Shown here: piece after piece, positions 12,239 through 29,039 of the stretch
Position numbering within the stretch: position 1 is the stretch's first letter
Layout of the letters: each line of letters begins with the position of its first letter
Assembly (NCBI GenBank): GCA_963842175.1
Contig: CAWJFM010000023.1
Location: 1,396,751-1,436,750 of the forward strand
Reading direction: 5' to 3'
Length of the DNA: 40,000 nucleotides
Source: an uncultured Alphaproteobacteria bacterium
GTDB lineage: Bacteria; Pseudomonadota; Alphaproteobacteria; ATCC43930; CGMCC-115725
Position numbers and translations under genes: made by a program
Notes under the pieces: generated by a model
The model's input: only the letters and a program-made list of their open reading frames with translations
Told to the model about the DNA's origin: nothing
The model's database searches: none

Positions 12239-12616
12239 CTATTGGGCTGGGGTCGTCAGCGTGGTGATCTGGCCGGCGAGTTGCCCCAGCCAGATCGCCG
12301 TCGTCAGCGGGTCGCCCGAGGACGGCCCAGAGCCAGACCCGCAGGCGGCGTCGCCGAAGCTCTCGATCGCGGTCACCTTGGCGCTGGCCGTACTCGCCAC
12401 CAGGCCGGCGCCGGTCACGGCGTCCGCCGCCGCCTTGCGCTTTTCGTATTCGCTGCAACCGGTCGCGATGAAGGGCTGGGCGGCCGTGGTGATCTTGTCG
12501 GCGACGCTATAGACCGAGGCCGCCGCGCCGAGTCCGCTCAGCACCGCCGGCGCCGCGGCGCAACCGAGCAGCGCCGGCGCGGCCGCCGCGAGGAGGCAGA
12601 TAGCGCGCAGCATCAC
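12239..12616 (-). CDS. lipoprotein (possible spanin-like or moron product)
   Basis: Signal plus lipobox MLRAICLLAAAAPALLGC. The start overlaps the stop of the upstream lipoprotein gene (GTGATG). Two further Cys 38 residues apart, the second in GDAAC. Confidence 0.55.
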   Translation of the reverse strand: MMLRAICLLAAAAPALLGCAAAPAVLSGLGAAASVYSVADKITTAAQPFIATGCSEYEKRKAAADAVTGAGLVASTASAKVTAIESFGDAACGSGSGPSSGDPLTTAIWLGQLAGQITTLTTPAQ

Positions 12617-12927
12617 AGCACCGGCAGGGTCCAGGTGCAGCCGTCGCCCAAGGCCGCGGATACATCGGCGGAATCGGCGGCGGCCGCGGTGTGGCCCGTC
12701 GAAGTCAGCATGTCGGTCAGCGTGTTGGCGAGCGCCTGGCCGGCGCAGGCGGCGGCCTGCGCCTTGGTCAGGATCGAGCTGCTCGACGAGCTGATCGTCG
12801 CGACCGCCGTCCCGGTCTTACCGACCGCGGTCTGTGCGTCGCCGACCGTCGTCAGATCCTGCACGGCCTGACAGCCGGCGAGCGCGACAACGGCGGTTAT
12901 CGGAAAAGCAATCCGCATCTTGCGCAT
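12613..12927 (-). CDS. lipoprotein, probable paralogue of 12239-12616
   Basis: ORF 12613-13260 trimmed to the ATG at 12927. MRKMRIAFPITAVVALAGC lipobox. Two further Cys 36 residues apart, the second in GDGC. Confidence 0.55.
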   Translation of the reverse strand: MRKMRIAFPITAVVALAGCQAVQDLTTVGDAQTAVGKTGTAVATISSSSSSILTKAQAAACAGQALANTLTDMLTSTGHTAAAADSADVSAALGDGCTWTLPVL

Positions 12928-13145
12928 CAGTTTGACCCTTTCGGTTGAGAAGCGGCGCCCTCTGGCACCAGGATGGCGATCAGGCCGCCGATCGCCGCGA
13001 CGACACTGAGGGCGGCATTGACGACATCGGGGCTCGCGCTGAGATGCAGGGCAGCGAGGACAAAGGCGGCAGCGCCGCCCCAGCTCGATGCCTCCTTCAT
13101 GCGCGCCCCGAGATAAGCGACGGTATTCATTCGGATTTTCCTCAT
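12927..13145 (-). CDS. small membrane protein, holin-like
   Basis: 72 aa with two hydrophobic stretches (WGGAAAFVLAALHL, VVAAIGGLIAILV). Lies directly downstream of the endolysin. Call rests on position and topology only. Confidence 0.4.
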   Translation of the reverse strand: MRKIRMNTVAYLGARMKEASSWGGAAAFVLAALHLSASPDVVNAALSVVAAIGGLIAILVPEGAASQPKGSN

Positions 13146-13153
13146 CGGAACGC

Positions 13154-13176
13154 AAAAAAAGCCGCCCGCGGGCGGC
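13154..13176 (-). terminator. rho-independent terminator after the endolysin gene
   Basis: On the minus strand: GCCGCCCGCGGGCGGC, a perfect 16-nt palindrome (13161-13176), followed by TTTTTTT (13154-13160). Confidence 0.6.
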
Positions 13177-13202
13177 TCGGACGGGAAGCGAGGCGAGCGG
13201 CG

Positions 13203-13909
13203 TCAGCCGGCCGGCGCGGCCCCGGCTATTGCCGCCGGCAGCGCGCCGGTGGCGAACCACGCCCGGAGATCGGCAAGCGTCCCGACCCAGACCGAGCGGT
13301 CGACCGGGGTCGCGATGCCGGCGACCCGCCCGGTCGGGGTGTATTGGTGAAAATCATAGGGCCGTGACCCGCCGTTCCACGCGGCCGGACGGCCCGGCGG
13401 CAGACGCGGCGGGCTGCTGGACCAGGCTGGCGTAATTCCCCGAACTCATGCCGCGCGGATATTCCGGCAGCATCAGCGGCCAGCGCGACAGATCCGGGCT
13501 CGGCTTCTTGCAGCTGCGCGAACCCGTAGTAGCCGACGGGATCGCGCGCGGTGCGGTCGGCGACGGCCCGGCCGATCGTGACCATGGCCGCGACCGTCGC
13601 CGCGGTTTCCCAATCGAGCATCGCCGGCTGCGCGGCTGCGAGATCCGTCGCGGCGAGGAAATGCGCGGCCTGCCGGTCGGGGTCTGATGTATCGAGAAAG
13701 TGATAGGGCACGACCAGCACCCCGGCACTGATGGCGGCGCGCCGGTTCCGCTCGAAGGCCGGATCGACGAAGCCCGCACCCTGCGTCGCCTTGATGAAGG
13801 CGAGCGCGATACCGGCATCAGCCACCGCCGGCCAGTCGATCGCGCCATTGTGGTGCGACACGTCGATGACGCCGTCGAAGACGATTGCGGGGAGCTCATA
13901 GACAGCCAT
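13203..13909 (-). CDS. GH25 muramidase (endolysin); at least two frame breaks
   Basis: GVIDVSHHNGAIDWPAVADAGIALAFIKATQG...VPYHFL is the GH25 N-terminal signature. The rest is spread over three frames: ...DLSRWPLMLPEYP..., then WNGGSRPYDFHQYTPTGRVAGIATPVDRSVWVGTLADLRAWF, with a stop at 13203-13205. Confidence 0.8.
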
Positions 13910-14341: not shown

Positions 14342-15193
14342 TCAGCATGCAGTGCTTGTGTAGAAATTGCCGCCGTTCCAGCAGACGGCATGACCGCCGA
14401 GACTGGTATCGATGTAGAGCACCGTCTCGCTGATATGACCGCTGCTGTCGGTCTGAAGGATGGTGTTGGCCCCGGAATTGCCGATCGGTGTCCCCGTCGC
14501 CAGCGCGGTGCCGCCGGTGCCGCTCCATCGCACGACATAACCGTCGGTTGAGCTACCCGGCCCGGTCACGAGATTGGCGATGACCGAACTCGACAGATGG
14601 CCGCTTGAGTCCGTCTCCATCACCGTATTGGCGCCGGAATTGCCAACCGGATAACCGGTCGCCAGCACACACCCGTTGGTGCTGCCCCACGATGCGACAT
14701 AACCGGCGGTCGTGCTGCCAGGACCGGTGATGCAGAAGCTCCCCGTGATGCCGATCGCCGAGGCAGTTGCCGGCGTCGCTCCGACAACCCGGAAATTGCC
14801 GGAATTGTCGAATTCGAGGGCCAGCATTTCGTAATTGCCGGCCGCGGTGGTGACCGATGTGACGGAATGCCCGCTCGGAAAGAGGATATTCCCGCCGCCC
14901 GTGGCGTTGGTCTGCACCGTTACCTGGTGGGCGTTATCGTTGACGACCTTGATCGTCCAGCCCGATGGCAAAACCCCGGATGTCGTTGCATTGGCCGGTA
15001 ATGTGATCGTCAGCGTGCCGCCGGCGTTGTAGGCCGAAAACACTGACCCCGAATCGTTCGGCACTGCGGTGTAGCTGGCGGCCGACGGATAGCGCCAATA
15101 ATCGTTGGCGCTGATCAGCTGCGCCCGCGCGGGAGGGCAGCCGAGGCCGGCAAGCAGCAGGGCGCAGACGAGGGCAGCCGAGCGCAGCATCAT
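14342..15193 (-). CDS. tail-fibre-like repeat protein with N-terminal signal peptide
   Basis: 283 aa. ATGA overlap with the upstream tail gene. MMLRSAALVCALLLAGLGCPPARAQ signal. Two tandem ~54-aa repeats (TGPGSTTAGYVASWGSTNGCVLATGYPVGNSGANTVMETDSSGHLSSSV / TGPGSSTDGYVVRWSGTGGTALATGTPIGNSGANTILQTDSSGHISETV) at 14408-14731. Confidence 0.55.
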   Translation of the reverse strand: MMLRSAALVCALLLAGLGCPPARAQLISANDYWRYPSAASYTAVPNDSGSVFSAYNAGGTLTITLPANATTSGVLPSGWTIKVVNDNAHQVTVQTNATGGGNILFPSGHSVTSVTTAAGNYEMLALEFDNSGNFRVVGATPATASAIGITGSFCITGPGSTTAGYVASWGSTNGCVLATGYPVGNSGANTVMETDSSGHLSSSVIANLVTGPGSSTDGYVVRWSGTGGTALATGTPIGNSGANTILQTDSSGHISETVLYIDTSLGGHAVCWNGGNFYTSTAC

Positions 15194-15813
15194 GGCGGTG
15201 CACTCCCGACGAGGCTCCAGAACACCGAGGCGAGCGTCGCGTCGGGCGACGCCGGCGCGACGATCGTCAGCACGTCGCCGATCGCGAAGGCGGTCGCCGC
15301 CGACATCGTAAAGCTCGCGGTCGTCGCGCTGGCCGCGAACGCCATCGTCCCGACGGCGCTGCCGTTCTTTTCGATCGAGTAGGTCGCCGTCCCCGTCGCC
15401 GCGGTCCCCGCAGCGCCCTGGCTGCCGCTGAGCCCGGCCGGAAAGGTCGTCGCCTGGCCGAAAACATAACGCTGCACGACCTGTGACGGCGTGGTCGGCC
15501 CGCTATAGGAGGCCGCGACCACCATCGCCGCGGCGCCGGCGCCGGTCAGCGTGTAGGTGACGGCGCCGACCTCGGCGAGGCTCTGCAGGGCCTGGCCGAA
15601 GGTGTTGAACGATAAGAGCTTCACAAAGATCGTCGAACCGATCAGGTTTGCCGGATAGCTGTAGCGGAACAACGACGGGTCATTCGGGCCGAAGCGCGCG
15701 AATTGGGCGCCGCTCGAATGGCTGCCGATCGGCGTCCCGTAAACGCCGCGGCGCAGCAGCGTCGTCAGGTTGTAGCGGTAGGCGGCGGTGAGGTTCGCGG
15801 TCTCATAGCTGAC
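15190..15813 (-). CDS. 3' portion of a tail (host-specificity-type) protein gene split by the 13.2-kb insertion
   Basis: In frame from 15813: VSYETANLTAAYRYNLTTLLRRGVYGTPIGSHSSGAQFARFGPNDPSLFRYSYPANL...SLVGSAPP. Joins seamlessly to 29025-29690 once the insertion and one repeat copy are removed. Confidence 0.8.
   Translation of the reverse strand, partial: VSYETANLTAAYRYNLTTLLRRGVYGTPIGSHSSGAQFARFGPNDPSLFRYSYPANLIGSTIFVKLLSFNTFGQALQSLAEVGAVTYTLTGAGAAAMVVAASYSGPTTPSQVVQRYVFGQATTFPAGLSGSQGAAGTAATGTATYSIEKNGSAVGTMAFAASATTASFTMSAATAFAIGDVLTIVAPASPDATLASVFWSLVGSAPP
15799..15813. repeat. target-site duplication, left copy
   Basis: GGTCTCATAGCTGAC is identical to 29025-29039 and directly abuts the left terminal inverted repeat. 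Confidence 0.85.
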
Positions 15814-15887
15814 CCCCTGGGAGCACGTCCGTCCGAACGGCAGGGTAGAGTGGTGCGGTGGTCAACAAAACTAATTGACGTGTCGCT
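15814..15887. repeat. left terminal inverted repeat
   Basis: CCCCTGGGAGCACGTCCGTCCGAACGGCAGGGTAGAG... matches the reverse complement of 28951-29024 at 67 of 74 positions. The first 37 nt are perfect. Confidence 0.9.
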
Positions 15888-15920
15888 CCCAAATCGGCTT
15901 TGTCTACCGTATTGTCACTG

Positions 15921-16213
15921 CCCGGCCTCCGGTGTCCCGGCCAGCCCCGCTGCGCTCGTCGGGCCGCGCTGGTGCTCGCTGAGGCAGTTCCAGCTCGCCC
16001 CGGCCTTGGTTAGCTCGGCCGGCGCCCGTGCACCCCAGCGGGCGCTCGCTGAGGCGGTTTCCGGCCCGGCCTGGACTCGGGTAGCTCGTCCCCGCCGTTC
16101 CGTGGCCTCGCGGGCTTCGCTGGCGGTCGCTGAGGCGTTTCCGGCCGCGCCCGGCCTCAGATAGGTCGGTCGCCCGCTCGCTGCGCTTGCTGGGCCGCGC
16201 TGGCGCTCGGGGG
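15921..16213. repeat. left subterminal array of about 4 degenerate 65-85-bp tandem units
   Basis: Each unit starts CCCGGCCT and ends with a CGCTGG-GCTCGCTGAGGCGGTTTCCGG-like core (15961-15990, 16040-16064, 16117-16145, partial at 16195-16213). The same core occurs inverted at the right end and once internally at 17322-17353. Confidence 0.75.
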
Positions 16214-16424
16214 AAATGGATGGGTGGGGGTGTGCTGTTTCGTGACGCACCCGGACACCTCGGTGGGGTGCGGCACGCAGCAACCGCCGGGTCGATCACA
16301 GCTTGGCGATGCCCCGATTTACCATTGCCTGAGCCATTCAAAGGCACGACTTTGGCCACGACGTTGCCGGCAATTCTGGCGAATATCGGATTAACTATAA
16401 AGAGCCGAAGCCAGGGAGGGATAA

Positions 16425-16628
16425 ATGGGCGAGTGGGTAGTCATGGCAATCTTAATGGTCAACGGCTCTAATTTACGAGTTGAAGTGGACAAGGCCGCGA
16501 GCCTTCAAGAATGCAAAATGAAGGCTATGCAGGCATATGCTCATTTGCCAAATGGACCGATCTTTTGTCAGCACGTTGATCAAGTCGAGTTAATCGACGT
16601 TTACGGAAACGCCCGACCAATACAATAA
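16425..16628 (+). CDS. hypothetical small protein
   Basis: 67-aa ORF with the GGGAGGG RBS 5-11 nt upstream of the ATG. Low-GC codon usage. Confidence 0.4.
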   Translation: MGEWVVMAILMVNGSNLRVEVDKAASLQECKMKAMQAYAHLPNGPIFCQHVDQVELIDVYGNARPIQ

Positions 16629-16649
16629 ATCCAGAGTTGTTTGGATCAG

Positions 16650-17234
16650 ATGAGCGCTATGCCTAAAACATCCATGCAAGCCATGATGATCGTGGCCGTG
16701 CTCGCGATCGTTCCGGCGGCTTTGGCAGCAAGTGTCGCCACGCGCGTTGTGCTCTACGCGCCTTATGGAATCGACGGACGCCTTCGATCGGGATTTACCG
16801 CTAGCCTACCGGTCCACGGCTCGTGTTGGACTTCATCGCTTGCCTCAACTCGGCCGGACGCATGGCGGTGCATGACTGGAAACTTCATCCACGACCCATG
16901 TTTTAGCAATCCCGCAAAGACCCAGGTGGCCTGCCCATCCGATCCGTTTAGAAAAGCGGTACTGGTGATCGACCTCGACAAGGCATTGCCCGCGCATTAC
17001 GGACAGTCAGGACAAAGCCCGTGGGCGCTCCGATTAGCCAATGGTGCGATCTGCGGCTTCGTAACCGGTGCCACGGGCGTCGTTGCCGGAATGCGATTGA
17101 ACTATGGATGCACAGGTAAAGGCTGGGTGATCGGAGAGGTAGACCGGTCGACTCGACCCTGGCGCGTCTTTTATACCCCTGATACTCAAAGCGGGGATTA
17201 CGTTCAAGTTGACGTGTCCGAAGCGGTCCTTTGA
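16650..17234 (+). CDS. secreted hypothetical protein
   Basis: ORF 16641-17234, ATG at 16650. Signal peptide MQAMMIVAVLAIVPAALAASVA. Cys-rich mature part. No family recognised. Confidence 0.55.
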   Translation: MSAMPKTSMQAMMIVAVLAIVPAALAASVATRVVLYAPYGIDGRLRSGFTASLPVHGSCWTSSLASTRPDAWRCMTGNFIHDPCFSNPAKTQVACPSDPFRKAVLVIDLDKALPAHYGQSGQSPWALRLANGAICGFVTGATGVVAGMRLNYGCTGKGWVIGEVDRSTRPWRVFYTPDTQSGDYVQVDVSEAVL

Positions 17235-17560
17235 TTTGAGTGGGCTTTGACGCTGCACAGGGAGCAAAAGACGGGACGCACGGCTATGGTAACAGTATAA
17301 ACAAACCTATCGGCTAGACTTGGCCGCGCTCGCGGTCGCTGAGGCGGTTCGGGCGAACCGTTTTCCGGTCATCGGCTTTCCGAGCACGAACTTAGCCAGC
17401 AACGCGGCATTGGACCCCGGCTTGGGTCGGCTCTGAGCAACTTCGATTCTTCAATGTTGACCGCGGCACTCTGTGGGAAAACTTTAGATGGGTTTGCCAA
17501 GCCGTGGTTATTGACAGGGGGGCTTTGTCCTCCGCATTCGAATGATTTTCATAAGGCGCC

Positions 17561-17740
17561 TCACCGGAACTTAATCCCGGTCATCAAGGAAAAGATCAAC
17601 GCGACGACTCCGATCACGATACAGAAGATCCCGAAGGCTACTGCGCCTTCGTTGGCTTTCCTCTGCTCGTCGAGTGTAAGCCGGTTGCGCCGGTAAATTT
17701 GCCGGTATGGGTGTTTTTGACGGTCGGTCGTTTTCGGCAT
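17561..17740 (-). CDS. small membrane protein
   Basis: C-terminal 59 aa of ORF 17561-18319, from the ATG at 17740: MPKTTDRQKHPYRQIYRRNRLTLDEQRKANEGAVAFGIFCIVIGVVALIFSLMTGIKFR. The rest of that ORF is antisense to the recombinase gene. Confidence 0.4.
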   Translation of the reverse strand: MPKTTDRQKHPYRQIYRRNRLTLDEQRKANEGAVAFGIFCIVIGVVALIFSLMTGIKFR

Positions 17741-17818
17741 GGTGCTACTTCGCTTTAGGGACCCCCTCGCGGAGGTTCCAAAACCGTTAGAAATCCTAAG
17801 CTTTGGTGGGCGATCCGC

Positions 17819-18371
17819 ATGTCTTTCACCAGATATGCACGGGTATCGACGGACGGCCAAAGCGTCGACGCGCAGATCACGGCGTTGACCGTCGCCGGCG
17901 CTGAAAAAGTTTCCCGCGAAGTGGCGAGCGGAACCAAGACCGACCGGGCGCAGCTCTTCCGATTGCTCGACCGGCTCGACGACGGCGACGTGCTGATGGT
18001 GACGCGGCTCGACCGGCTCGCGCGCTCGACCCGCGATCTTCTCAATGCCCTCGCGGCGATCACCGGCAAGGGAGCCGGTTTCCACTCGCTCGGCGACGCA
18101 TCGGCGAACACGACACCGCCGCACGGCTGGTTGATGCTCACCGTGCTTGGCGGCCTTGCCGAGTTCGAGCGCGAATTGATCCGCACGCGCACCGGCGAAG
18201 GACGGGCACGGCCGAAGGCTCGCGGTGTCAAACTCGGCCGGCGGCCGAAACTTACCCCGCACCAGAAGCGCGAGGGCTTTGGCGCGGCGCGAAAAGGGCA
18301 AGGAGACACTTGCCGACATCGGCCGCAGCTACAACGTGAGCGCATGGACGATTTCAAGGCTGACAGCTTGA
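17819..18371 (+). CDS. small serine recombinase (resolvase/invertase family); one frame break near 18275
   Basis: YARVSTDGQSVDAQ (catalytic Ser motif), VTRLDRLARSTRDLL and LAEFERELIRTRTGEGRARPKARG. Dropping one G of GAGGGC restores the C-terminal HTH ALARREKGKETLADIGRSYNVSAWTISRLTA, with a stop at 18369-18371. Confidence 0.85.
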
Positions 18372-18410
18372 CCTCGCGCACGTTTGGACGCTGAGGAGGA
18401 AACGCAAACG

Positions 18411-19250
18411 ATGGGCCGCCCCTTCGATTCGTGGCAGGATTACCAGTTATTCTCCCGCGCCGTCCGGAAACACAGAAGATATATCAGGACTCCGTCAGAA
18501 CAGGCCTTTTTAGAGGCAGTACGCGTCACAGTGAAAGACCGTATAATAACTCGTCCGGCGGGATACACGTTTTGGCGCGCGCAGCGCGGATACTGTGTGG
18601 GGTCAACCGCAATGGACAACGTCGACATTATCGACGCAGTTCCGTATCCGTCGGAACGAATGAAACCTCGTACCAATCAAGCCTCCGAAGGCGGAGCTAA
18701 TCCAAAAGACATTCCATGTCTCTATGGCGCGACTTCTCCTGATACCGCTGTGGCGGAAGTAAGGCCATGGAAGGGAGAACTTGTTTCAATTGGCAAATTT
18801 ACTCTATGTCGTAACGTGAAAATAGTAGAATGTTTAAAATATCATGATGAAGACCCCCATGATGTCTTTCTGAATACGCTCTACCCTCTTATGACATCAG
18901 CTACGGGAGAGATTGTTGCGGGCGAGCCGGAACCCCCTTCAGACGAAGCTGTAATAAAAAACGTGTGGACGCATATAGATAAGGCATTCTCTGAACCAGT
19001 AACACACAGCGATGACCACGTAGACTACGTACCGACACAGAATTTAGCAGAATTATTCAAGACAGAGGATTACGATGGCGTGTGTTATCACAGTCAGCTT
19101 TCAGATATGGGTGTTAATTTGGCGTTTTTTGACCTAGAGATAGCAACAGTAGCAGGCCGCCATTTGCGCCAAGTGACTGACGTAAAAATAGAATCCAAAA
19201 TGCGCGAAGGCCGCGGGATTGATCCCCATTCCGGCAAGCCAAATAATTAG
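18411..19250 (+). CDS. RES-domain protein
   Basis: FWRAQ, GGANPKDIPCLYGATSPDTAVAEVRPWKG and YVPTQNLAELFKTEDYDGVCYHSQLSDMGVNLAFFD fit the RES family pattern. The usually conserved Arg of the GRxN motif reads Gly here. Markedly AT-richer than its neighbours. Confidence 0.65.
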   Translation: MGRPFDSWQDYQLFSRAVRKHRRYIRTPSEQAFLEAVRVTVKDRIITRPAGYTFWRAQRGYCVGSTAMDNVDIIDAVPYPSERMKPRTNQASEGGANPKDIPCLYGATSPDTAVAEVRPWKGELVSIGKFTLCRNVKIVECLKYHDEDPHDVFLNTLYPLMTSATGEIVAGEPEPPSDEAVIKNVWTHIDKAFSEPVTHSDDHVDYVPTQNLAELFKTEDYDGVCYHSQLSDMGVNLAFFDLEIATVAGRHLRQVTDVKIESKMREGRGIDPHSGKPNN

Positions 19251-19299
19251 AGATTTGGCGACGACTGGCGCGACGCGTAGGGTGTCCGTTGTCCTAGTC

Positions 19300-19625
19300 A
19301 TGGCGATCTTAACCACCGCTTTGCTGATCACGTCATCGGAAGCAGCGCAGCCGGGTAACTATAATCTGATCGGCGCCGGAACCATTTCATGCGGGAGGCT
19401 GGACAGCGTTGCGGCGTCGAGGGCAGGCAGACTTTGCCGAACAGTGGATTTTGGGCTTCCTCTCCGGAGTTGGCTATGAGGCAGGAGGGGATAACCCTCT
19501 GAACCCCCTGAATGGCGTTGATGCGGCTGCCCGTCTGGGCTTGGATGGATAACTACTGCCGAGCCAATCCTCTAAATACCGTCGCAGCCGCTGGTGCGGC
19601 ATTCGCTGCAACACATCCTCGCTGA
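19300..19625 (+). CDS. small secreted protein, spread over three frames
   Basis: MAILTTALLITSSEAAQ signal, then ...ISCG..., FAEQWILGFLSGVGYEAGGDNPLNPLNGVDAAA, and WAWMDNYCRANPLNTVAAAGAAFAATHPR in successive frames. Stop at 19623-19625. Confidence 0.4.
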
Positions 19626-19703
19626 CTTTCCAGAATCCCGCGTTATCCGCCGCGCCAGTCTGCCGACTTTCCAGAAGTGACCTTATCGGCCATCCGGAGC
19701 GGG

Positions 19704-20135
19704 TCAAAACGGAACGTCGTCGTCGTCGAGATCGGCCGCGGCGGCGCCGCCACCGCTGAGCTAAGCCGCGCTGGCATCGTCTCGCCGACCGTCGAGCATG
19801 ACAAGCTTGCCGCGGTGCTGCGACAGCACGATCTCGGTTGCGCTGCGCTGCGGGCCTTCCTGATCCTTCCATTGGCGGGTCCGTAGCTGCCCCTCGATGT
19901 ATACTTTGGAGCCTTTGCGCAGATATCTGAAGGCGACTTCGGCGAGCTGTTCGCTAAAGATAGTGATGTGATGCCATTCGGCACGCTCGCGCCGCTCGCC
20001 GCTAGTCCGATCGTGCCAACTCTCCGATGTCACGAGGTTAAATGAAATGACAACGCCGCCCGCCTGTGTCGCCCGCATCTCGGGATCGTGTCCGAGGTTA
20101 CCGATCAGGATTACTTTGTTGATGTTACCGGCCAT
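19704..20135 (-). CDS. ssb: single-stranded DNA-binding protein with an in-frame TAG at 19761-19763
   Basis: MAGNINKVILIGNLGHDPEMR...WHHITIFSEQLAEVAFRYLRKGSKVYIEGQLRTRQW is an OB-fold SSB. After the TAG the same frame continues LSGGGAAAADLDDDDVPF then stop, the canonical acidic SSB tip. Confidence 0.85.
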
Positions 20136-20138
20136 GAG

Positions 20139-22397
20139 TCATTCTTCATGCGGTAAAAAATCGATATGATCGGGCATACCTTCAAGCCAAACGTCTTCGC
20201 CCATCAGCTCCAATTCGCCGCTGTCATTAATCACCGTGATAAGCTTGTCGAAATCAGCCGGTTTATATCCTTCACTTTCGGCAAAGAGAGACCCGACGCG
20301 GGGAGACGTGGTCAGACTTCCATCGTCATTGACGACAACACGCATCCGGTGCCGCTTGCTATCCCATTCAAAGGTTTCGTGGCGTGTTTCGTCCTTCCAT
20401 TGACCTGCAAGCCAGGACTTGCCGCGGGCAAGTGCCAGCCGGTTCCCGTAAAATACAGGGATGGTTACAGGAACCGAGGGGAGCTTCCGTTCTTTCAGAA
20501 GGAGTTCTTTGGCGCCAGGTCGGCATAAAAGCTCGAACCATTCCTCGAACGTTCGAATAAATTGCGGGGCTGCCTTACCAATCACAGAACGTTTGACACC
20601 GCGCGATTTGATACGATCGGTCAATTCAGAAGCCGAGTCATCCGAATGACGCAGCAAGGTCGGTGAAAAATACACTCCGGGCTGAGCGATAAAGAGATCG
20701 GGCCATTGCTTCAATTCCCATTGCCCCAGCCCCTTACCGATATCGAGCGCGAGGGGTCGGGTGCTGAACACAGCATCGGTTGCGATCATCACCACCGCCT
20801 CGGGGTCTTGCCCGACTGCTTCCATGATCCGCGCTCGCGTTATTGCGGTGATCAAGCCGGCCTCTACCACGTCGTGATAAGGCCCGTGTCCGCTGCGCTG
20901 GGCGCGTTTGCCGTAAAGTGAGTTCAGCGCGAGCTTGAGGGGATAGCCTTTGGTCGAGGCGCCCAATCGTTGCCGTTCCACGTAAACCTCGGTGATCCAG
21001 TCATACGGCCGGCAATCGCAGCAGCGCTTGGCGATCCAAACATCGTGAACGGTGATGATGTCAGCTTGCAGGTGCTGGCAAGCCGCTTCGATTTCCGGTG
21101 ACCAATACCACCCGGTTCCGCGCAACGGCCAGAACAAGCCGCCCTTCTGCCGAAAAGGAAAGCCGCACCACAAGCTATCGGGCGGATGCGAGAACGTCAC
21201 CTTGGCAAGATAAAGTTCGCCGTTGGTCGGCAACCGCCGACGTCGGCTGTGAACCCATCGCGTATGTTGCGGGCATGGCATTTGCAGCATTCCCGCGGGA
21301 TAGGCGCTTTTGAGATCGTTTTCGAACAAGGGACCGGTGAGGAAACCGATCCGCGAAACCTCGAAGCGCCCGCCATAGTACGCAAGGTTCGCGGCGATTT
21401 CTAATTCACGATCTCGCTCGGGCCGGCGCGGCGACGGATTGTTGGAAGGCTTACTTTCCGCCGCCTCCCGCTGTTCTCTGGCAGTCAATGGCCGCTTCAA
21501 CGCACCGTGTTGTTTGAGCATTGCTGCAGCAAGCCAACCAGCTCCGGCCCATCGTTCCGGGCGAATTCCGGCGGCATAGCATACCTCGCGGAATTCGGTC
21601 ATGAGCACAGCGAGATAACGGCATTCCAAAGTGCAATATTCAATCATCTGGTCGGTTAATTCGGTAAATTCGTTCCTGATATCCTTATTCGCCTTAATGA
21701 TAGCGCGCTCGGCCTCATTACCGATGTTCCAATCCGTAATAGCTTTCACGAAAGTGCATTGAAAAAACCCAAGCGTTTCATAAACCGTTCGGCTTGATCC
21801 TTTCAAGACCCTCGGCTTCGGCCCGCTCCGATCGATCCGAGCGACGCGCAGGTATTGTCCTTGCTGATAGGTGATCGCGTATTCTCTCCAGAATACCGGG
21901 ATCGGCCCGTTCTTGCCCTGTCGTGGATTGATGATTTCCCGCAGCTTTTGGCCAGGAATACCCCGCAGGATTTGGGTTGCGTCGTAACCAATACCATATC
22001 CTACGAGAATAGGTTCTTTGGGAAGGCTCAGCAGAAATTCAAAACAATCTACAATGGACAACGCTTTGCCCTTATTGTGACGAATGTGCTTTGTCTCTCC
22101 CGATGCGTCCGCGGCGACCATCAATAAATAATGCTGCCGCCCGAGATAGTCCGTTCCGCCGCCTTCTCCGTCTATTGCCAGGAACGGGCGGAGTTCCCCG
22201 TTGGCGCGTGCTTCCCGCTTTCGCTCGCGTTCGCGTCCGAACTGTTCGGGAGTTTGTCGCTGGCGAGCGTCGCGCTTGCGGCGGCGTTCTTGCTCGCGCC
22301 GCGCTTCGACCTCCAGCGCATATTCCGGCCCCAGCGCCTTGATCCTCTCGCGGACGTACTCGACCGCAGCCGCAGCGTCGGATGGTAAGGTTGTCAT
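20139..22397 (-). CDS. family-B DNA polymerase (752 aa)
   Basis: Start at MTTLPSD (ATGA overlap with the upstream ORF). ExoI FLAIDGEGG, ExoII GYGIGYD, ExoIII YCTLECRYL. Motif A FENDLKSAYP, motif B KLALNSLYGK, motif C VMIATDAVF. KSRG lies where KxY normally sits. No frame break in 2.26 kb. Confidence 0.8.
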   Translation of the reverse strand: MTTLPSDAAAAVEYVRERIKALGPEYALEVEARREQERRRKRDARQRQTPEQFGRERERKREARANGELRPFLAIDGEGGGTDYLGRQHYLLMVAADASGETKHIRHNKGKALSIVDCFEFLLSLPKEPILVGYGIGYDATQILRGIPGQKLREIINPRQGKNGPIPVFWREYAITYQQGQYLRVARIDRSGPKPRVLKGSSRTVYETLGFFQCTFVKAITDWNIGNEAERAIIKANKDIRNEFTELTDQMIEYCTLECRYLAVLMTEFREVCYAAGIRPERWAGAGWLAAAMLKQHGALKRPLTAREQREAAESKPSNNPSPRRPERDRELEIAANLAYYGGRFEVSRIGFLTGPLFENDLKSAYPAGMLQMPCPQHTRWVHSRRRRLPTNGELYLAKVTFSHPPDSLWCGFPFRQKGGLFWPLRGTGWYWSPEIEAACQHLQADIITVHDVWIAKRCCDCRPYDWITEVYVERQRLGASTKGYPLKLALNSLYGKRAQRSGHGPYHDVVEAGLITAITRARIMEAVGQDPEAVVMIATDAVFSTRPLALDIGKGLGQWELKQWPDLFIAQPGVYFSPTLLRHSDDSASELTDRIKSRGVKRSVIGKAAPQFIRTFEEWFELLCRPGAKELLLKERKLPSVPVTIPVFYGNRLALARGKSWLAGQWKDETRHETFEWDSKRHRMRVVVNDDGSLTTSPRVGSLFAESEGYKPADFDKLITVINDSGELELMGEDVWLEGMPDHIDFLPHEE

Positions 22398-22810
22398 GCT
22401 GCCGCCCTGCGACGGATGCCGGCGCGTGTCGAGTAGTAGAGGCGCCACAGCGAGCCGCGATAAAACGGCCACTCGGCGAAGGGATCGGGAGCGCTCGGCG
22501 GCACGTAGTCGGGATAGCGTTGAACCGCTGCCCGGAACCGATCTTGTTCGTTGATCGACAGCGCGTTGAACAGGCTGCGGTCGCGGTCGCTGAGCGCGAC
22601 CCGGAACTCTTCCCGTGTTTCAATTGCCCGGATGCCGCGCCGCGCTGCCGCTGCCCGCCGCTGCGCCCGGCGGCGCGCCTCGGGATTTTTCGCACGGGCC
22701 GCTCGCGCTTCGGCGAGCGCTCGGCGCCTGCTCAGCTCGGCCCGGTGCTGCCGCTCGTAGGAAGGAGTGCCGGGCCGGTACGGATTGCGTCGCGGGCGCC
22801 GCTCAGCCAT
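22394..22810 (-). CDS. basic hypothetical protein translationally coupled to PolB
   Basis: MAERRPRRNPYRPGTPSYERQHRAELSRRRALAEARAARAKNPEARRR...FAEWPFYRGSLWRLYYSTRAG. Its stop overlaps the polB ATG. Confidence 0.5.
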   Translation of the reverse strand: MAERRPRRNPYRPGTPSYERQHRAELSRRRALAEARAARAKNPEARRRAQRRAAAARRGIRAIETREEFRVALSDRDRSLFNALSINEQDRFRAAVQRYPDYVPPSAPDPFAEWPFYRGSLWRLYYSTRAGIRRRAAA

Positions 22811-23166
22811 GGCGTGCCGCCACATGAAAATGGCGAGCCTCCCGCCAGCGCGGGCGCGAGCCTAAAACGAAAAAGTCCGGGTCCGGCGAGAACAAAATCG
22901 GATCGAACCGCGGTCGGAATTCGTCGGCATCGAGCGCCACAGCGAGCCGCGCATACGCGGCAGTCATTGGCCGCGCTCCCACCGCGGGACCTCGGCATTG
23001 CCTCGCTCCGCCCGCCATGGTAAAGCGTTCACCATGAAGTTCCCCCCTCCGCGGCAGCCGCCGTGGTTGTATGGACTGGGCGACCGATATCATGTGCGGA
23101 AAAATGCCGCAAGAAATATCGGGAGCATGCCTTCTTTTCAAACAGAATCAGTGCTATAAGAGGCGC

Positions 23167-23793
23167 ATGAACACCAAGCGCCAGGCCTTGGACGCCACCT
23201 CAGCCCTCAAATCCGGCGACCTCTCGAAGGCCGTTAGGCTTGCGGCCAAAGCCGCCAAAACCGCCAAAACCGCCGAAGATGGTCTACTACCTCTGCTCAA
23301 CGAGGCCATGCAGGCAGGGATAGCCCTCGGGCAGGCGAGCGGCAAAAGCGAGGCTCCGCCGCCGGAAGCATTGGGATTTTTGCGCTTTTTAGCGGCAGCG
23401 CCGGTTGCCGCGGAGGGCTTTCGGACACTGCGGGAAAGCCTCGGAATCTCGCAGGCTGAGATTGCCGAAATGTGCGGCGTCTCCCGCGCGGCTGTGTCCG
23501 ACTGGGAGCGTGGCAAAGCGTCTCTGCCGCCAGCCGCCGTTCATGCCCTTCTCGGGTTAACGATGGCCCGCCTTGGTCGGGCCGAGCCGGCGCCGCTGCT
23601 CGGCAGCGATATAGCCAGGATTCGCAAAGCACTCCGGATGCGGCAAACCGATTTAGCCGCTGCACTCGGAGTCAGCGAGATCGCGGTCAGGAAATGGGAG
23701 CAGCGTGGCGATCAGCCGCTTGCTTCATCGACGGTTCGCCGCATCCAGCCCCGGCTCGACGAACTACAGGCGCAAGCGTCAGCAGCGTCTTGA
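23167..23793 (+). CDS. DNA-binding protein with two XRE/Cro-type HTH domains
   Basis: ORF 23071-23793 trimmed to the ATG at 23167. LRESLGISQAEIAEMCGVSRAAVSDWERGK and IRKALRMRQTDLAAALGVSEIAVRKWEQRG. Divergent from the polB operon and immediately upstream of the Cas1-like gene. Confidence 0.7.
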   Translation: MNTKRQALDATSALKSGDLSKAVRLAAKAAKTAKTAEDGLLPLLNEAMQAGIALGQASGKSEAPPPEALGFLRFLAAAPVAAEGFRTLRESLGISQAEIAEMCGVSRAAVSDWERGKASLPPAAVHALLGLTMARLGRAEPAPLLGSDIARIRKALRMRQTDLAAALGVSEIAVRKWEQRGDQPLASSTVRRIQPRLDELQAQASAAS

Positions 23794-23833
23794 TCTGATC
23801 ACTCGGTTCAAATTCGAGCCGCTCGGATCGGGA

Positions 23834-23864
23834 TTGATTTTAATCGCCGTCGAATTGGTATAGT
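23834..23864 (+). promoter_or_regulatory. candidate promoter for the Cas1-like gene
   Basis: TTGATT (23834-23839) and an extended -10 TGgTATAGT (23856-23864). The spacer is 19 nt, longer than optimal. Lies in an AT-richer gap. Confidence 0.25.
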
Positions 23865-24100
23865 ATTGAATTTGCTCCGCAAAGGGGCGCACCGGAGCAG
23901 GCGCTGGAACGCCTGCCCCGGCACTTGATCAACGATGCGATAGGAGCGCACCGTGACCCTGCTGATACGTGTTCCCAAACCTCAGAGGCGTCAACCGGGT
24001 CGTTGCCCGCTCTTAGACGGACAGACCGTCCCGACTGCGGGCATTCTGTTCAATCGCTGCATCGTCCACCCGAGCCAAACGGAAAACCGGAGGCTCCCTC

Positions 24101-25744
24101 ATGCACGCCGATGACACGAACTACACCGTCATTAAGAATGGCGTGGTTGTCGTGAGCGGCACCGGCCCGGCGATCCGCGTCGACGGCAACAAGCTGGTCA
24201 TCCGCGACGGCCCGAAGGAAACCCCGCCGCTCGCGCTGACGCGGGCGGAAGCCTCGCGAAGGCTGCGACATATCATCGTCACCGGGCAGGCCGGCGGCTT
24301 CATCACCTTCGACGCGCACCGATGGCTGCGCGACACGGGTGTTGCGTTCTCTCAAGTCGATTGGGATGGGAGCGTCATCATTGCTTCCGGATCGCGACGA
24401 CCCGACCGGCCGGCGCTGCGCCGGGTGCAAACGCTCATATGCAGCGGAGTCATTCCACAAACAGCGGTCGCCATCACGCGCGAAATCCTGCGCGTCAAGC
24501 TGGCCGGCCAAGCTGAGGTTGCCCGGCTGCTAGGGCGGGCGGAGGCGAGCGCGGCCATCGCCGGCCTCACTGCGGACATCGCTCGCGAGGCGGCCGGCCC
24601 AAAGGTGCTGGCGATCGAAGCGAAGGCGGCCTCGATTTACTGGCGCGAGTGGGCAACGGTGCCGGTGCGGTTCGCCCGCGACAACCCGCAGCGGCTCGAT
24701 CATAAGGGACGATGGCGGCCCGGCCGAGCCGCGGCATGGCATACATTCGGAAGCCGGGTGTCGGCGTTGACCGGTAAGCCGCGGCGGGCGACTACGGCCG
24801 GCAACGCGATTCTCAATTTCCTGCTAGGGATCGCAAAAATCGAGATGACCGTTGCCTTGTACGCGGTCGGACTCGACGCAGGGATTGGACTATTTCATGC
24901 CGATGAGGACGGCCGCCCCTCGCTGGCGCTGGATGCGCAAGAGGCAGTCCGTCCGTATATCGACGCATGGTGTCTCTCGTTCCTGGCAGCGACGGCTTTC
25001 GCCAATCGTGATTTCCACGAAACCGCAGAAGGTGAGGTTCGGCTTACCCATCCGCTCACGGCGCACCTTGCACATATGGCCGCGCTGTGGCGGCCGGCGT
25101 GCGAGCGGGTAGCGGCATGGCTGGCGCAGGCGTTCGCCGGTACGGTTGACCTTCCCGCCGACAAACCCGGCGCTGACGATCTGCCGCGGATCGCTGCCGC
25201 TGTCGCCGGGCCGCGGAAGCGAGGCGCGCGGCAACTGGCGCCCTTACCTCGACTGTTGCCGGTGCCCACCGGGCGGGACTTGAGTAGCCTGCCGGCACTG
25301 CGCGGCGGCTTGCGCGACAACCCCGTACCGCAGGCGTGTTTCGAATGCGGCCGAGCGCTGACGCGGAAGCAACGCCGTTTCTGTTCGACCGCTTGTACAG
25401 CCGCCTTTTCTACGGCCTCGGGGCGGATCGCAGCGATGCGTGAATTGTCTGCGGGATCAACCGACCGTTCCGAAACCCTTCGCGCCGCCAATGCCGCACG
25501 ACGCGAATGGGCAGCCCATCACGCCGCGGATCGGGTCGCCTTCGATCGCTGGTATTCGGCTGCGATAGAGCCGCGCCTTACCTCGCTCCGCACCGCCGAT
25601 ATTCGGCGCTCCCTTGCGGTGTCCTGGAGTTATGCTACCCTCATCAAGCAGGGGCGGCGAACGCCACACCCGCGACATTTTCCGGCCTTAGCGAAGCTCG
25701 CCGGGGTTGAGGCGCCGAGCATCGGCGCGGCGGGTAGCGGATGA
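24101..25744 (+). CDS. cas1: Cas1-like integrase (putative casposase) with a C-terminal Cys4 and HTH-like extension
   Basis: GGAGG RBS. HIIVTGQAGGFITFDAHRWLRDTGVAFSQVDWDG (N-terminal domain). AIEAKAASIYW (E173), TAGNAILNFLLG (N235), GLDAGIGLFHADEDGRPSLALDAQEAVRPYID (H266, D278/E281) match the Cas1 catalytic-domain pattern by eye. CFECG...RFCSTAC at residues 413-432. No frame break in 1.64 kb. Confidence 0.8.
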   Translation: MHADDTNYTVIKNGVVVVSGTGPAIRVDGNKLVIRDGPKETPPLALTRAEASRRLRHIIVTGQAGGFITFDAHRWLRDTGVAFSQVDWDGSVIIASGSRRPDRPALRRVQTLICSGVIPQTAVAITREILRVKLAGQAEVARLLGRAEASAAIAGLTADIAREAAGPKVLAIEAKAASIYWREWATVPVRFARDNPQRLDHKGRWRPGRAAAWHTFGSRVSALTGKPRRATTAGNAILNFLLGIAKIEMTVALYAVGLDAGIGLFHADEDGRPSLALDAQEAVRPYIDAWCLSFLAATAFANRDFHETAEGEVRLTHPLTAHLAHMAALWRPACERVAAWLAQAFAGTVDLPADKPGADDLPRIAAAVAGPRKRGARQLAPLPRLLPVPTGRDLSSLPALRGGLRDNPVPQACFECGRALTRKQRRFCSTACTAAFSTASGRIAAMRELSAGSTDRSETLRAANAARREWAAHHAADRVAFDRWYSAAIEPRLTSLRTADIRRSLAVSWSYATLIKQGRRTPHPRHFPALAKLAGVEAPSIGAAGSG

Positions 25745-25957
25745 CCCCCGTGCGCAGCGACATTGGGGGCGGCATTCATTGCGGCCTTCTCCGCGCTGGC
25801 CTGCGCTGTTGGGCAGCGCCAATCCATACTGTTCCCCGGTGCAGATCGTCCGCGTATCGGCTTCAAATGTTGCTGGCCTCCTGCAAATTCCCGAAGGCGC
25901 CCGGTCGAAGCGGCCCCGCGCTGGCGCGCCTTCAAATTTAGAGCGAGGCGGGCTTAA

Positions 25958-26648
25958 CTACAGGCTGGCACTTGCAGCCATCTGTGCCGCTCTGACGATC
26001 CGGTCTTGCTCCGCTTTCTCCTGATGCCAAACTTCTCGCTCCTGAGCGTAGGCTTCGAAATCTTGTCGGATTTTCTTCTCAGCCTGTGCGGCACCCTCCA
26101 AAACGGACTTACAACCCGAGGCAAGGTCAGTTTCGACCTGAAATGACACTCCGAGGGAGCTGCCACCGCTGCAAATGGCCGAGGTCGCATGGAGGAGCGG
26201 CAAGAAATTGTTGGCCCAATACTGATGGTTGTTCCGGAGAGTTGTCACCTGCATGTGGAGGTTGCTCGCTTGCAGCCCCATCTGGATTAGCTGAACCGAA
26301 AATTGCACCCGCGTGGCGCCAGTTTGTCCGGGAGCAGGTGAATAGAAAGTGCGTTCCCTTTCCAGACCGTTTCTCATCGCCGCGGTGATATCTCGATACC
26401 TTTGTTCGATCCTCTCCAACTGGCGAACGCGCTCGGCAACCGCAGAACTCAATACCTGCGTTGTCCGATAGAACCTGATTGATGTGTTCCCTCAGGCTCT
26501 GTTGCGCGGCTTGCTGCGCCTGCCGCGCTCGCTGTGCTGCCGCCTGTGCAGCTTTTTGCTGCTGTTCAGCTTGCCGAGCTGCGGCAATGCGAACCGCTTT
26601 CCGTTCCGTTACCGGACGGTGGGATTTCCGAGCAACATCGAAATACAT
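25958..26648 (-). CDS. coiled-coil hypothetical protein (one gene with a frame break near 26460, or two genes)
   Basis: MYFDVARKSHRPVTERKAVRIAAARQAEQQQKAAQAAAQRARQAQQAAQQSLREHINQ (from the ATG at 26648) runs into VLSSAVAERVRQLERIEQRYRDITAAMRNG... of ORF 25958-26452 after a 1-nt shift. Confidence 0.4.
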
Positions 26649-26869
26649 CTACCCGGTGTGAGCTGGACATGTTGGGCTGCGGCAATCGCGTCTATCGCCG
26701 AGTCCGGAAGCACGGCCACAATCGCAGCTCCAATTCCACCTTGGCGCATCGCCTCCTGTCGAATTTCGTCGCGCACGATCCCGCATGGGCTGAGTGTGCC
26801 GAATTTCAGTAGCACGACGCCAGCCGCGATTGCTACCAGAGCAATGCATATGAAGCCGGCTTCGCGCAT
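26609..26869 (-). CDS. membrane hypothetical protein
   Basis: ORF 26609-26881 from the ATG at 26869: MREAGFICIALVAIAAGVVLLKFGTLSPCGIVRDEIRQEAMRQGG... The tail overlaps the next gene by 40 nt. Confidence 0.4.
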   Translation of the reverse strand: MREAGFICIALVAIAAGVVLLKFGTLSPCGIVRDEIRQEAMRQGGIGAAIVAVLPDSAIDAIAAAQHVQLTPGRCISMLLGNPTVR

Positions 26870-26986
26870 CGCAGCCCCCAAAGGTCGGTGTGCGCCAAGT
26901 AGGCGTTAATGGTGAATATAAACCTAATACGGTTTATCATAGCGCTGTTGCTGGCGGTTTTCGAATGGCTGGCGATGGTGATCGGC

Positions 26987-27064
26987 ATGATCACCTCTCG
27001 GCAGATCAGAGCCGCTCACGCGCTTCTCGGCTGGTCTCAACAGCAGCTTGCCGACAAGGCATCT
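26987..27064 (+). pseudogene. 5' fragment of an XRE-type HTH gene
   Basis: MITSRQIRAAHALLGWSQQQLADKAS is a typical XRE N-terminus. Downstream, the + frame becomes the antisense of the minus-strand fragment. Confidence 0.45.
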
Positions 27065-27074
27065 CGTCAAAAAA

Positions 27075-27227
27075 TTAGGGGCGGGCGAGCCGCACCCCTT
27101 CTCCCTTCACGTCGGCCGCGAGAAATTCGATGCCGGCTTCCGTCAGTGCTTTGTGGACCGCCATCAACGTGCTCATCCTCGGGTCCACCTCCCCTCGCTC
27201 TAATCGCGCGAGCGCGTTGAGAGAAAT
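27075..27227 (-). pseudogene. 3' fragment of an XRE-type HTH gene, on the opposite strand to its 5' fragment
   Basis: ISLNALARLERGEVDPRMSTLMAVHKALTEAGIEFLAADVKGEGVRLARP then stop. No start codon or first helix upstream. Joining it to 26987-27064 gives a complete in-frame HTH protein. Confidence 0.5.
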
Positions 27228-27274
27228 GATTGGGCAGCCGGCGCTACCCTCGCGCGAAATACGAGAGGGAGGCA

Positions 27275-27537
27275 ATGCCGCATCGACGACGCATTTTGGC
27301 GACACTCGCCGCCCTTGGGTTGCTTCTGGCAACAATAGGCGGCGCGGCAGCTCAGTAACCGGGGGTTGGATTGCGGCTACTACGTCAACCGAAGCGGAGA
27401 AACGCCTCCGCGCCCATGGAAGCGTCAGGGAGGAACAACCGCCACGCGGCGCCACGGCAACATGCCGCGATGGGGAGTACAGCTACAGCCGGCATGATAG
27501 CGGCACGTGCTCCGGACAGGGCGGCGTGCAAAGCTGA
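27275..27537 (+). CDS. DUF3761-like secreted protein, spread over three frames
   Basis: GAGGGAGG RBS. MPHRRRILATLAALGLLLATIGGAAAQ signal, then GYYVNRSGE..., then PPRGATATCRDGEYSYSRHDSGTCSGQGGVQS (the C-DG-YS-S...GTCS-GGV signature). Confidence 0.6.
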
Positions 27538-27753
27538 CTCTGCTGAATGTCAAGCCGAGTGGGTGCGCCATGCAATTCTTCGCCGCCGCTTCGATCATAA
27601 TCGCCGGCATCGTCGGCACGATACTCGCGGTGTTTGATCGTTCTCGCGATGCGCCAAGGCTGGCGCGAGGGCGACGTGGTTGAAGTTCACTCGGCCCTGA
27701 CGGGATGCAGGTCATCGATCTCCAAGAGCGGCAGCACCGCGCAGAGTTCGCCG

Positions 27754-27948
27754 ATGATCACTGATCTCGACATTTACCGTGCTGCGAATTTGCTGATCGA
27801 GCGGCACGGCCCGAATGCGCTCATTGAGGCGGCCCGGCTAATCGATCGGATGCTAGAGCGCGGCGACCGCGATGGGCAACTTGTGTGGCTACGGATCAAG
27901 CGGGCGATCGAGGCGTTGCAAGCACCGCCGAGCGGGACGAGGCATTAA
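27754..27948 (+). CDS. hypothetical small protein
   Basis: ORF 27634-27948 trimmed to the ATG at 27754: MITDLDIYRAANLLIERHGPNALIEAARLIDRMLERGDRDGQLVWLRIKRAIEALQ. Confidence 0.5.
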   Translation: MITDLDIYRAANLLIERHGPNALIEAARLIDRMLERGDRDGQLVWLRIKRAIEALQAPPSGTRH

Positions 27949-28241
27949 TGACGAACGACCTGGAGATCATACATATTCTTTGGCGCGGACCATTAACATT
28001 GGCAGATGCAAGCACTGCCAATACAGGTGGCGACTACGGCGTGTATCAAATCTATGGCACACATGAAACAGGAGGACCTGATACGCTGCTCTATGTAGGT
28101 CAGGCTGATCGGGGAACGTTCGATGGCCGCATCCTGTATCATTATTCAGAATGGGGCCGGTGGAACCCCGATGATCTCAAAATTTACCTCGGACAAATGG
28201 CGGGGGTCAGGCCGATAACCAACGACGCTTGGGGCAATTAA
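27948..28241 (+). CDS. hypothetical protein
   Basis: ORF 27885-28241 trimmed to the ATG at 27948 (TAATG overlap with the upstream stop): MTNDLEIIHILWRGPLTLADAS... Lower GC. Confidence 0.45.
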   Translation: MTNDLEIIHILWRGPLTLADASTANTGGDYGVYQIYGTHETGGPDTLLYVGQADRGTFDGRILYHYSEWGRWNPDDLKIYLGQMAGVRPITNDAWGN

Positions 28242-28444
28242 CAGTTCGCGCATTCGATCGCTTCGATATCAAGAGAAACCCATCTTAATCGTAAATCACG
28301 GACGCAGACATCGCCTACCAGAATGCATCTCGACCCTTACCGAATTCATCAACACCGATGGTCGGCTAAAGCCATTTAGCCCGGATAATTCACGAAGTCG
28401 CATAAGGAGGGCGGCGGGAGCAGCATAAGCCGTTGGATTTGTGT

Positions 28445-28700
28445 ATGATTATGGTTGTTCAGGCCAGATCAACCGAAGCAACGGAGTTCGCGCCCGCCAT
28501 GGCGGAAGGTACGGGGATTCTGCCGGGTTTGCCAGCCGTCGCCGGCAAGCCGGTGTATGTCGGTTTCGATGGAGGACGGCTCACCTCAGATGCCGGTATC
28601 CTGTTGCTGTCAGCCGTCGAGCAGCGGCTTCGGATCGCCGAGCGCCTGGCCGCCTGCCTCGAAGACCCGCGCGACCCGGACAGGGTGCGACACGAGCTTG
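28445..28700 (+). pseudogene. N-terminal remnant of an IS1380/IS4-type DDE transposase
   Basis: KPVYVGFDGGRLTSDAGILLLSAVEQRLRIAERLAACLEDPRDPDRVRHEL resembles the N-terminus of DDE_Tnp_1_4-type transposases. The similarity stops after about 85 aa, where the ORF runs into the subterminal repeats. Confidence 0.5.
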
Positions 28701-28708
28701 CCGACGGC

Positions 28709-28940: not shown

Positions 28941-28950
28941 AGGAAGTGGT

Positions 28951-29024: not shown

Positions 29025-29039
29025 GGTCTCATAGCTGAC
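29025..29039. repeat. target-site duplication, right copy
   Basis: GGTCTCATAGCTGAC is identical to 15799-15813. Confidence 0.85.

Follow-up and report, generated by a model that had tools for sequence, protein, structure and literature searches.

The stretch of DNA that was analyzed here (the window, 40,000 nucleotides) holds a mobile element whose parts are collected in Table 1. The element carries a Cas1-family integrase and a family B polymerase and is bounded by TIRs with a target duplication, which in casposons measures about 14-15 bp; by these features it is recognized as a casposon. The polymerase gene (20139-22472) is of the DNA_pol_B_2 type (PF03175, E 7.5e-11) and adjoins the SSB gene, and the cargo includes a two-HTH protein (23071-23793), a resolvase, a RES-domain protein and a DUF3761 protein. 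The two tips of the casposon are complementary to each other at 90% over an inverted repeat of 79 nt, and the outermost 1-2 bases of the 16-bp duplication can be assigned equally well to the TIR. When the element is removed in silico together with one 16-bp copy, a 426-codon open frame runs across the joint on the minus strand. The insertion into the host gene, which belongs to a prophage, is recent and clean: both copies of the 16-bp duplication are identical, and without the element the host frame is open again. Such a pristine insertion would mean that the end architecture, with the unequal and diverged arrays described below, belonged to the mobile element itself. A terminus profile matched just the two ends in the element's own assembly, where no solo TIRs were found, and an Rfam scan of the end regions found no CRISPR families.

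Table 1. Positions of the casposon, its end arrays and neighbouring features in the window, with repeat positions at the ends of related casposons (loci named L; units of the left and right arrays are L1 to L4 and R1 to R3).
Feature	Position	Strand	Length	Remarks
Casposon	15815-29024		13.2 kb	Cas1, PolB and SSB genes; ~75-nt TIRs; 16-bp target duplication
Left target-site duplication copy	15799-15814		16 bp	Exact 16-mer repeated at 29025-29040
Right target-site duplication copy	29025-29040		16 bp	
Left TIR	15815-15888	+		Terminal motif CCC(T/A)GGGAGCA..CGTCCGTCCG, common to related casposons
Spacer between left TIR and first unit			32 nt	
Unit L1	15921-15998	+	78 nt	Core 15977-15989
Unit L2	15999-16064	+	66 nt	Core 16047-16059
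Unit L3	16065-16149	+	85 nt	Core variant 16128-16140
Unit L4	16150-16212	+		Truncated; ends in GGCCGCGCTGGCGCTCG, right before expected core position
Low-G+C segment	16213-17321	+	1.1 kb	54-57% G+C; holds ORF 16641-17234
Orphan half-unit	17322-17354	+		Begins GGCCGCGCTCGCGGTCG, then full core
Casposase	24101-25744	+		Cas1 domain (PF01867, E 3e-27) with C-terminal Cys4 and HTH-like tail; candidate binder
IS1380-family transposase remnant	28562-28705	+		Profile positions 3-49 of 419; abuts and truncates R3
Unit R3	28706-28756	-		Truncated, without core; nhmmer E 0.0092
Unit R2	28757-28836	-	80 nt	Core 28765-28777
Unit R1	28837-28903	-	67 nt	Core 28845-28857
Three perfect 15-bp tandem copies	28891-28935	-		Triplication of first 15 nt of R1
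Right TIR	28951-29024	-		
L009 terminal-motif copies	1413, 1928, 2922	+		
L009 terminal-motif copies	16664, 16681, 17196	-		
L032 terminal-motif copies	1640/1501			
L041 terminal-motif copies	512/384			
L051 terminal-motif copies	409/563			
L069 terminal-motif copies	2299/2434			
L071 terminal-motif copies	4950/4502			
L008 repeat	1590/1705			
L009 repeats	1722/1841, 1760/1878			
L050 repeat	right end, about 210-400 nt from tip			

Inside the TIRs lie two arrays of units of 66-85 nt that are arranged head to tail, four on the left and three on the right in mirror orientation, and at either end the units have the same orientation with respect to the terminus. Each array closes with a truncated unit (L4 and R3). 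All left units have CCCGGCCT at their start; L1 and L2 finish with GCTCGCTGAGGC(A/G)GTT, with GGTCGCTGAGGCGTTT instead in L3, and the core that closes L1 to L3 can be written as CGCTGAGGC(A/G)(G/T)TT. The initial annotation had described about four tandem units on the left, which are present, although the core of the third is a variant and the fourth stops short of its core. On the right it had reported the inverted core twice and three 15-bp copies; both are there, but the truncated third unit was overlooked. Its view that the two arrays share a core holds, and the left and right ends align with each other over about 250 nt. We conclude that the arrays form the inner part of the casposon ends, a conclusion supported by the data, and that these ends are about 325-400 bp long, close to the 300-400 bp first proposed for the functional ends.

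An orphan core that had been placed at 17322-17353 is real, with an nhmmer E value of 0.0024 against a unit profile built without it. The half-unit to which it belongs forms inverted repeats with R1 and R2 (85-89% identical), and the 17-mer at its start is identical to the end of L4 in 15 of 17 positions. If L4 and the half-unit are overlapped by this 17-mer, they make one normal unit of 76 nt. The low-G+C segment that lies between them has no counterpart in five relatives by tblastx, and its ORF has no Pfam, NCBIfam or PHROG match. This segment may be cargo that split a fourth complete unit, judging by this one example. Directly inside the left array, at 16229-16288, there is also an imperfect palindrome of ~58 nt, to which an Rfam hairpin model is matched on both strands at the level of noise (E 0.2-0.5).

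The right array has been altered in other ways. The 15-bp triplication in R1 is a sign of recent slippage. The remnant of an IS1380-family transposase stops exactly at the start of the truncated R3, so that an IS must at one time have occupied the right array or its edge, most of it being lost before the casposon inserted at its present site; because this insertion is itself pristine, the remnant must have come along with the casposon. No second copy of the remnant was found in the genome assembly, and the unit sequence has no similarity to the IS1380 fragment. By slippage, by IS insertion and by the capture of cargo inside an array, such arrays may grow and decay.

Within a unit, a conserved block of ~50 nt is followed by a more variable linker of ~30 nt. 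The constrained parts are a core of ~17 nt (GCTGAGGCGGTTCCGGC) and an adjacent 9-nt box (CCCGGCCTC), and the linkers are homologous to one another, with common TAGCTCGG and GCTGCGCT blocks. Units are 66-88% identical to each other, and the left array is only about 75% like the right one. The cores follow each other at spacings of 70, 81 and 80 nt. From the first core to the tip of the element the distance is 163 nt on the left (15977) and 168 nt on the right (28857), with different intervening sequence; at the right end both the spacer and the first unit are shorter, which the 15-bp triplication makes up for. If up to two mismatches are allowed, the 13-mer core is present 12 times in the window compared with 2.6 +/- 1.6 times in shuffles, and all six copies with at most one mismatch lie in the element, in inward orientation. 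For CCCGGCCTC there are 10 occurrences in the window where 1.1 are expected. A chance origin of the repeats is thus excluded.

Several other identities for the units were tried and rejected. The fold energies are no better than those of shuffled sequences (z +0.74 and +1.09) and Rfam returned noise only, which does not point to a structured RNA; this lack of a hairpin excess fits sites that are bound as duplex and not units that work as hairpin elements. Neither sigma-70-like promoters nor intrinsic terminators were found in the arrays. The units are also not copies of the terminus, as no local alignment between a unit and the terminal region exceeded z 2.5. The ORFs that cross the arrays have no family match except for the IS1380 remnant. 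Three of these ORFs had been dismissed as spurious, which agrees with the lack of a family match for 15703-16164 and 15904-16359. The third, 28433-28966, is not purely spurious, because its codons 44-91 encode the N-terminal ~50 residues of an IS1380-family transposase (PF13701, NF033539).

Homologues of the casposase were found by the hundreds in metagenomes (more than 240 proteins), and the ends could be recovered for a dozen of them. Among 243 other genomes of the order, 11 contain homologues that are 35-63% identical, eight of these genomes belonging to one genus; a sample of 400 genomes from the class contained none. The clade is patchily distributed among reference genomes and abundant in metagenomes. 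Units were found in three casposons, the one in the window and two relatives (L045 and L053), and the left end is seen in the window only. In L045, whose Cas1 is 82% identical, the right end has the same terminus type followed by two units about 79 nt apart, one with a near-identical core and one with a variant. In L053 (Cas1 ~59% identical) the same terminus type is followed by one good and one degenerate unit. A four-way alignment shows that the terminus, unit 1 and unit 2 are collinear. The alignments of units between elements reach z values of 4.2-10.9, which none of 1000 shuffles attains, with the exception of the degenerate second unit of L053.

Unit 1 of the window has an identity of 0.68 to that of L053, and for L045 and L053 the value is 0.79. 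For comparison, the third positions of identical four-fold codons of cas1 are identical at 0.41 and 0.42 in the same two pairs. Inside the unit, the pairwise identity averages 0.81 over the tight core, 0.70 over the 5' box and 0.49 over the linker. The identity above that of synonymous sites, the uneven conservation within the unit and the equal distance of the first core from the tips argue for selection on the core. All three casposons with units encode Cas1, its tail included, as well as PolB and SSB, and have a small ORF upstream of PolB; the 2xHTH protein is absent from both L045 and L053. An alignment of the casposases shows the invariant Cys and a conserved tail, and the recognition-helix region differs between the window and L053 despite their common units.

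Other relatives do not share the units. L054 (Cas1 61% identical) and L069, from the genus of the window (57%), have a terminus of the window type and no units, and therefore the units cannot be indispensable for such ends. No recognizable casposon terminus was found in L047, L055 and L056, and the contigs of L046 and L048 do not reach an end. L047 has the resolvase, SSB, PolB and Cas1 in common with the window at 77-84% nucleotide identity. On its 13.8-kb contig this module is flanked on both sides by a duplication of at least 1.5 kb in inverted orientation (arms 235-1760 and 12360-13762), whose copies include a gene with an fn3 domain and the 5' part of the resolvase gene. The module may be a segment that inverts or a linear element with long TIRs, or the arrangement may be an assembly artefact. 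In L045 there is an extra insertion of ~80 nt between the TIR and the first unit (14700-14790, minus strand), in which GTCAC(T/G) is repeated about six times; at the corresponding place the window has a single copy.

The arrangement can be compared with several known systems. The ends of phage Mu contain the MuA sites L1-L3 and R1-R3, and Tn7 has three TnsB sites on the left and four on the right. As at these ends, several subterminal copies of a motif lie inside the cleavage site of the casposon, inverted at both ends and unequal in number and spacing. However, the Mu and Tn7 sites are about 22 bp long and closely spaced, whereas the casposon cores are about 80 nt apart, and their transposases are DDE enzymes with defined site-binding domains, whereas here the enzyme is a Cas1 homologue and a putative binder. 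Plasmid iterons measure 17-22 bp, are usually spaced by about 22 bp in helical phase and are found next to the rep gene of a single origin. The units share with them that they are direct repeats which a protein of the element might bind. They differ in their size of 66-85 nt and in their mirrored arrangement at two ends, and the scanned ORFs included no Rep-type initiator gene; the suggestion that this is a replication-initiator array thus has nothing specific in its favour. The ends of eukaryotic hAT, CACTA and pogo-related elements, such as Ac/Ds (PMC3260210), Emigrant/Lemi1 (PMC1636448) and Kat1 (PMC4763223), also have short TIRs followed by a few hundred bp of iterated motifs. The subterminal motifs of such elements are bound by the transposase and needed for efficient transposition, which for the casposon can serve as an analogy at most. 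The eukaryotic motifs are 6-12 bp long and much denser, and their enzymes and hosts are unrelated to those of the casposon.

Among casposons, the element resembles the published families 1-4 in its Cas1, PolB and TIRs and in its target duplication of 14-16 bp (Krupovic et al., 2014; PMC4046053). The published TIRs range from 25 to 602 nt, some with internal palindromes, and an HNH endonuclease gene is stated for all casposons of families 2 and 3 (PMC4046053). Unlike these, the good inverted repeat here extends for ~75 nt only and the rest is a degenerate array of unequal copy number; moreover, a DNA_pol_B_2-type polymerase is encoded, and a Pfam scan of 20 ORFs, with small or overlapping ones covered in part, showed no HNH family. 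In the casposon literature that could be searched, the length and the palindromes of the ends are described, and iterated subterminal units with a conserved core, or iterons, are not.

The first point to be weighed is whether the units belong to the casposon at all. GC-rich, short and tandem as they are, and with an IS1380 remnant touching the right array, they could be a REP/BIME- or MITE-like repeat that is scattered over the genome, or the leftovers of another mobile element at both ends. Searches at several scales do not agree with this. In the 4.59-Mb assembly, which is about 66% complete, the exact 12-mer core occurs four times, each time in the element; BLAST with the left end returned the two ends only, and nhmmer with a profile of the seven units found these units and the orphan half-unit, the next match having an E value of 0.84. 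In 244 genomes of the order there were short GC-rich chance matches only. A 20-mer scan of metagenomes gave four single chance matches, of which the one that was checked is coding DNA. In IMG/VR the shared TIR motif had no match, and a search for two cores at unit spacing had one, within a phage terminase-like gene; the phage and plasmid collections contained no unit. With no copy elsewhere in the assembly, in the genomes of the order or in phage and plasmid records, the units are not REP-like, and their lack of hairpin potential and of resemblance to the IS fragment points the same way; the finding of a generic scattered repeat, which the initial annotation had named as refuting its view, did not materialize. 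The idea of a dispersed or leftover repeat is very improbable and can be regarded as largely refuted already. A CRISPR-like record, in which Cas1-mediated insertions beside a repeat would give a conserved repeat and a variable spacer, is suggested by the integrase being a Cas1 homologue, by a unit length of 66-85 nt that is near that of a CRISPR repeat plus spacer, and by the division of each unit into a conserved block and a variable linker. Yet units of different casposons are orthologous, the two ends carry mirrored arrays, Rfam gives no match to a CRISPR repeat or any other family, and the units are 66-88% alike where a CRISPR array has near-identical repeats with unrelated spacers; since even the linkers are mutually homologous, they are duplicates and not acquired spacers. 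This origin is close to refuted, and we consider it extremely improbable.

What remains is the question of function. The explanation that we favour, with a confidence that stays somewhat below even, is that the arrays are accessory docking sites for a protein of the element, most likely for the zinc-finger/HTH tail of the casposase, a binder that we infer from the sequence. Docking sites are the most likely function because the units, while absent from the rest of the genome, are found again in two related casposons. The earlier proposal of a transposase-binding type of array stands to the extent that the same motif is found inverted in both ends and is conserved in two relatives, with the binder as its putative part. 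In such a mechanism the TIR of ~75 nt would carry the cleavage and joining site of the Cas1-type integrase, and the cores would be double-stranded docking sites for several copies of an element-encoded protein, most probably the casposase by way of its C-terminal tail. A multi-subunit complex would then assemble on each end, marking it as a casposon end, and would help to pair both ends for excision and integration, as the subterminal MuA and TnsB sites do. Copy number may drift through slippage, and cargo or IS insertions may interrupt an array. The tail of the casposase is a better candidate than the 2xHTH protein because the latter is missing from both relatives that share the units. It was reported that in the one system tested the HTH domain of a casposase is essential for integration, and no DNA target of the domain was found (PMC6977970). 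Against docking by the tail, the isolated HTH domain of M. mazei showed no detectable DNA binding (PMC6977970), and family 2 casposases integrate substrates with the terminal TIR nucleotides alone in vitro (PMC6614799, PMC9939771). The degeneracy of the units, the likeness of the arrays at just ~75%, the variable copy number and the ongoing slippage also weigh against docking, as do L054 and L069, which lack units, L047, which lacks termini, and the difference in the recognition helix between the window and L053.

One alternative, which we regard as unlikely, is that the units are an accessory origin for protein-primed replication of the excised linear element and bind PolB, its terminal protein, SSB or a small DNA-binding protein by which the ends are opened. 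Analogues of such an origin are the auxiliary sites in the inverted terminal repeats of adenovirus and the p6 nucleoprotein arrays at the ends of phi29. The DNA_pol_B_2-type polymerase beside an SSB gene fits this, as do the presence of PolB, SSB and the small ORF in all three unit-bearing casposons and the mirrored arrays, which are like the origins of linear replicons; in L008 and L009 the TIRs of 189 nt and 547 nt are 99-100% identical, which is typical of replicons that homogenize their ends. In the window, however, the arrays are only ~75% alike and differ in copy number, and therefore the ends are not homogenized. To our knowledge, the known protein-primed origins require just the terminal tens of bases, which also speaks against a role for the units, as does their absence from L054 and L069, and protein-primed replication is hypothetical for casposons. 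Alternatively, the arrays could be a tolerated GC-rich minisatellite that arose by slippage in long, decaying inverted repeats and has no sequence-specific function. The perfect 15-bp triplication as a trace of recent slippage, the copy numbers of 4, 3, 2 and 2 with their degenerate units, the relatives that have the same terminus without units, and the interruption of both arrays, one by the IS1380 remnant and one by the 1.1-kb cargo segment, are all compatible with such a neutral tract. We give it a low probability, as it does not explain why unit 1 is kept in position though synonymous sites are saturated (0.68-0.79 compared with 0.41-0.42), why the core is far better conserved than the linker (0.81 compared with 0.49), or why the first cores lie equally far from the tips (163 and 168 nt) across different intervening sequence.

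The CRISPR adaptation machinery is presumed to descend from casposons, and this gives the docking sites their wider interest. An element-specific and iterated conserved core, about 165 nt inside each tip, is a concrete candidate for what the tail of a casposase may recognize on its own DNA beyond the last terminal bases. Even if the arrays are neutral, they are still a record of how the ends of casposons grow and decay.

Subterminal repeats are also found at other casposon ends of the clade. The best subterminal direct repeat scores at least 16 in 6 of 12 casposon ends and in 6 of 108 control segments from the same loci, and the repeated sequences are specific to each lineage. In six casposons (L009, L032, L041, L051, L069 and L071) an inward second copy of the terminal motif lies in the same orientation 128-515 nt inside the tip. 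Both the frequency of subterminal repeats in the clade and these iterated terminal motifs count in favour of docking sites. This doubling of the terminal motif may come from recurrent insertion beside an existing end or may be a built-in double terminus. In L008, L009 and L050 unrelated types of repeat are all spaced by 115-119 nt, which, next to the 70-81 nt of the lineage of the window, may reflect a constraint on spacing. It is possible, though we are inclined to doubt it, that multi-site ends are general to this large clade of bacterial casposons, most of it metagenomic, and that their motifs are the target of the HTH/zinc-finger tail of the casposase; the motif would be the core in the lineage of the window and, in sister lineages, the copies of the terminal motif or the lineage repeats, at a spacing of about 115-135 nt. 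Casposition would then be a multi-subunit process like the transposition of Mu and Tn7, and this layer would have been lost when Cas1 was recruited to CRISPR adaptation. As a separate observation, L009 resembles a casposon nested in an outer pair of 547-nt TIRs with its own 14-bp target duplication.
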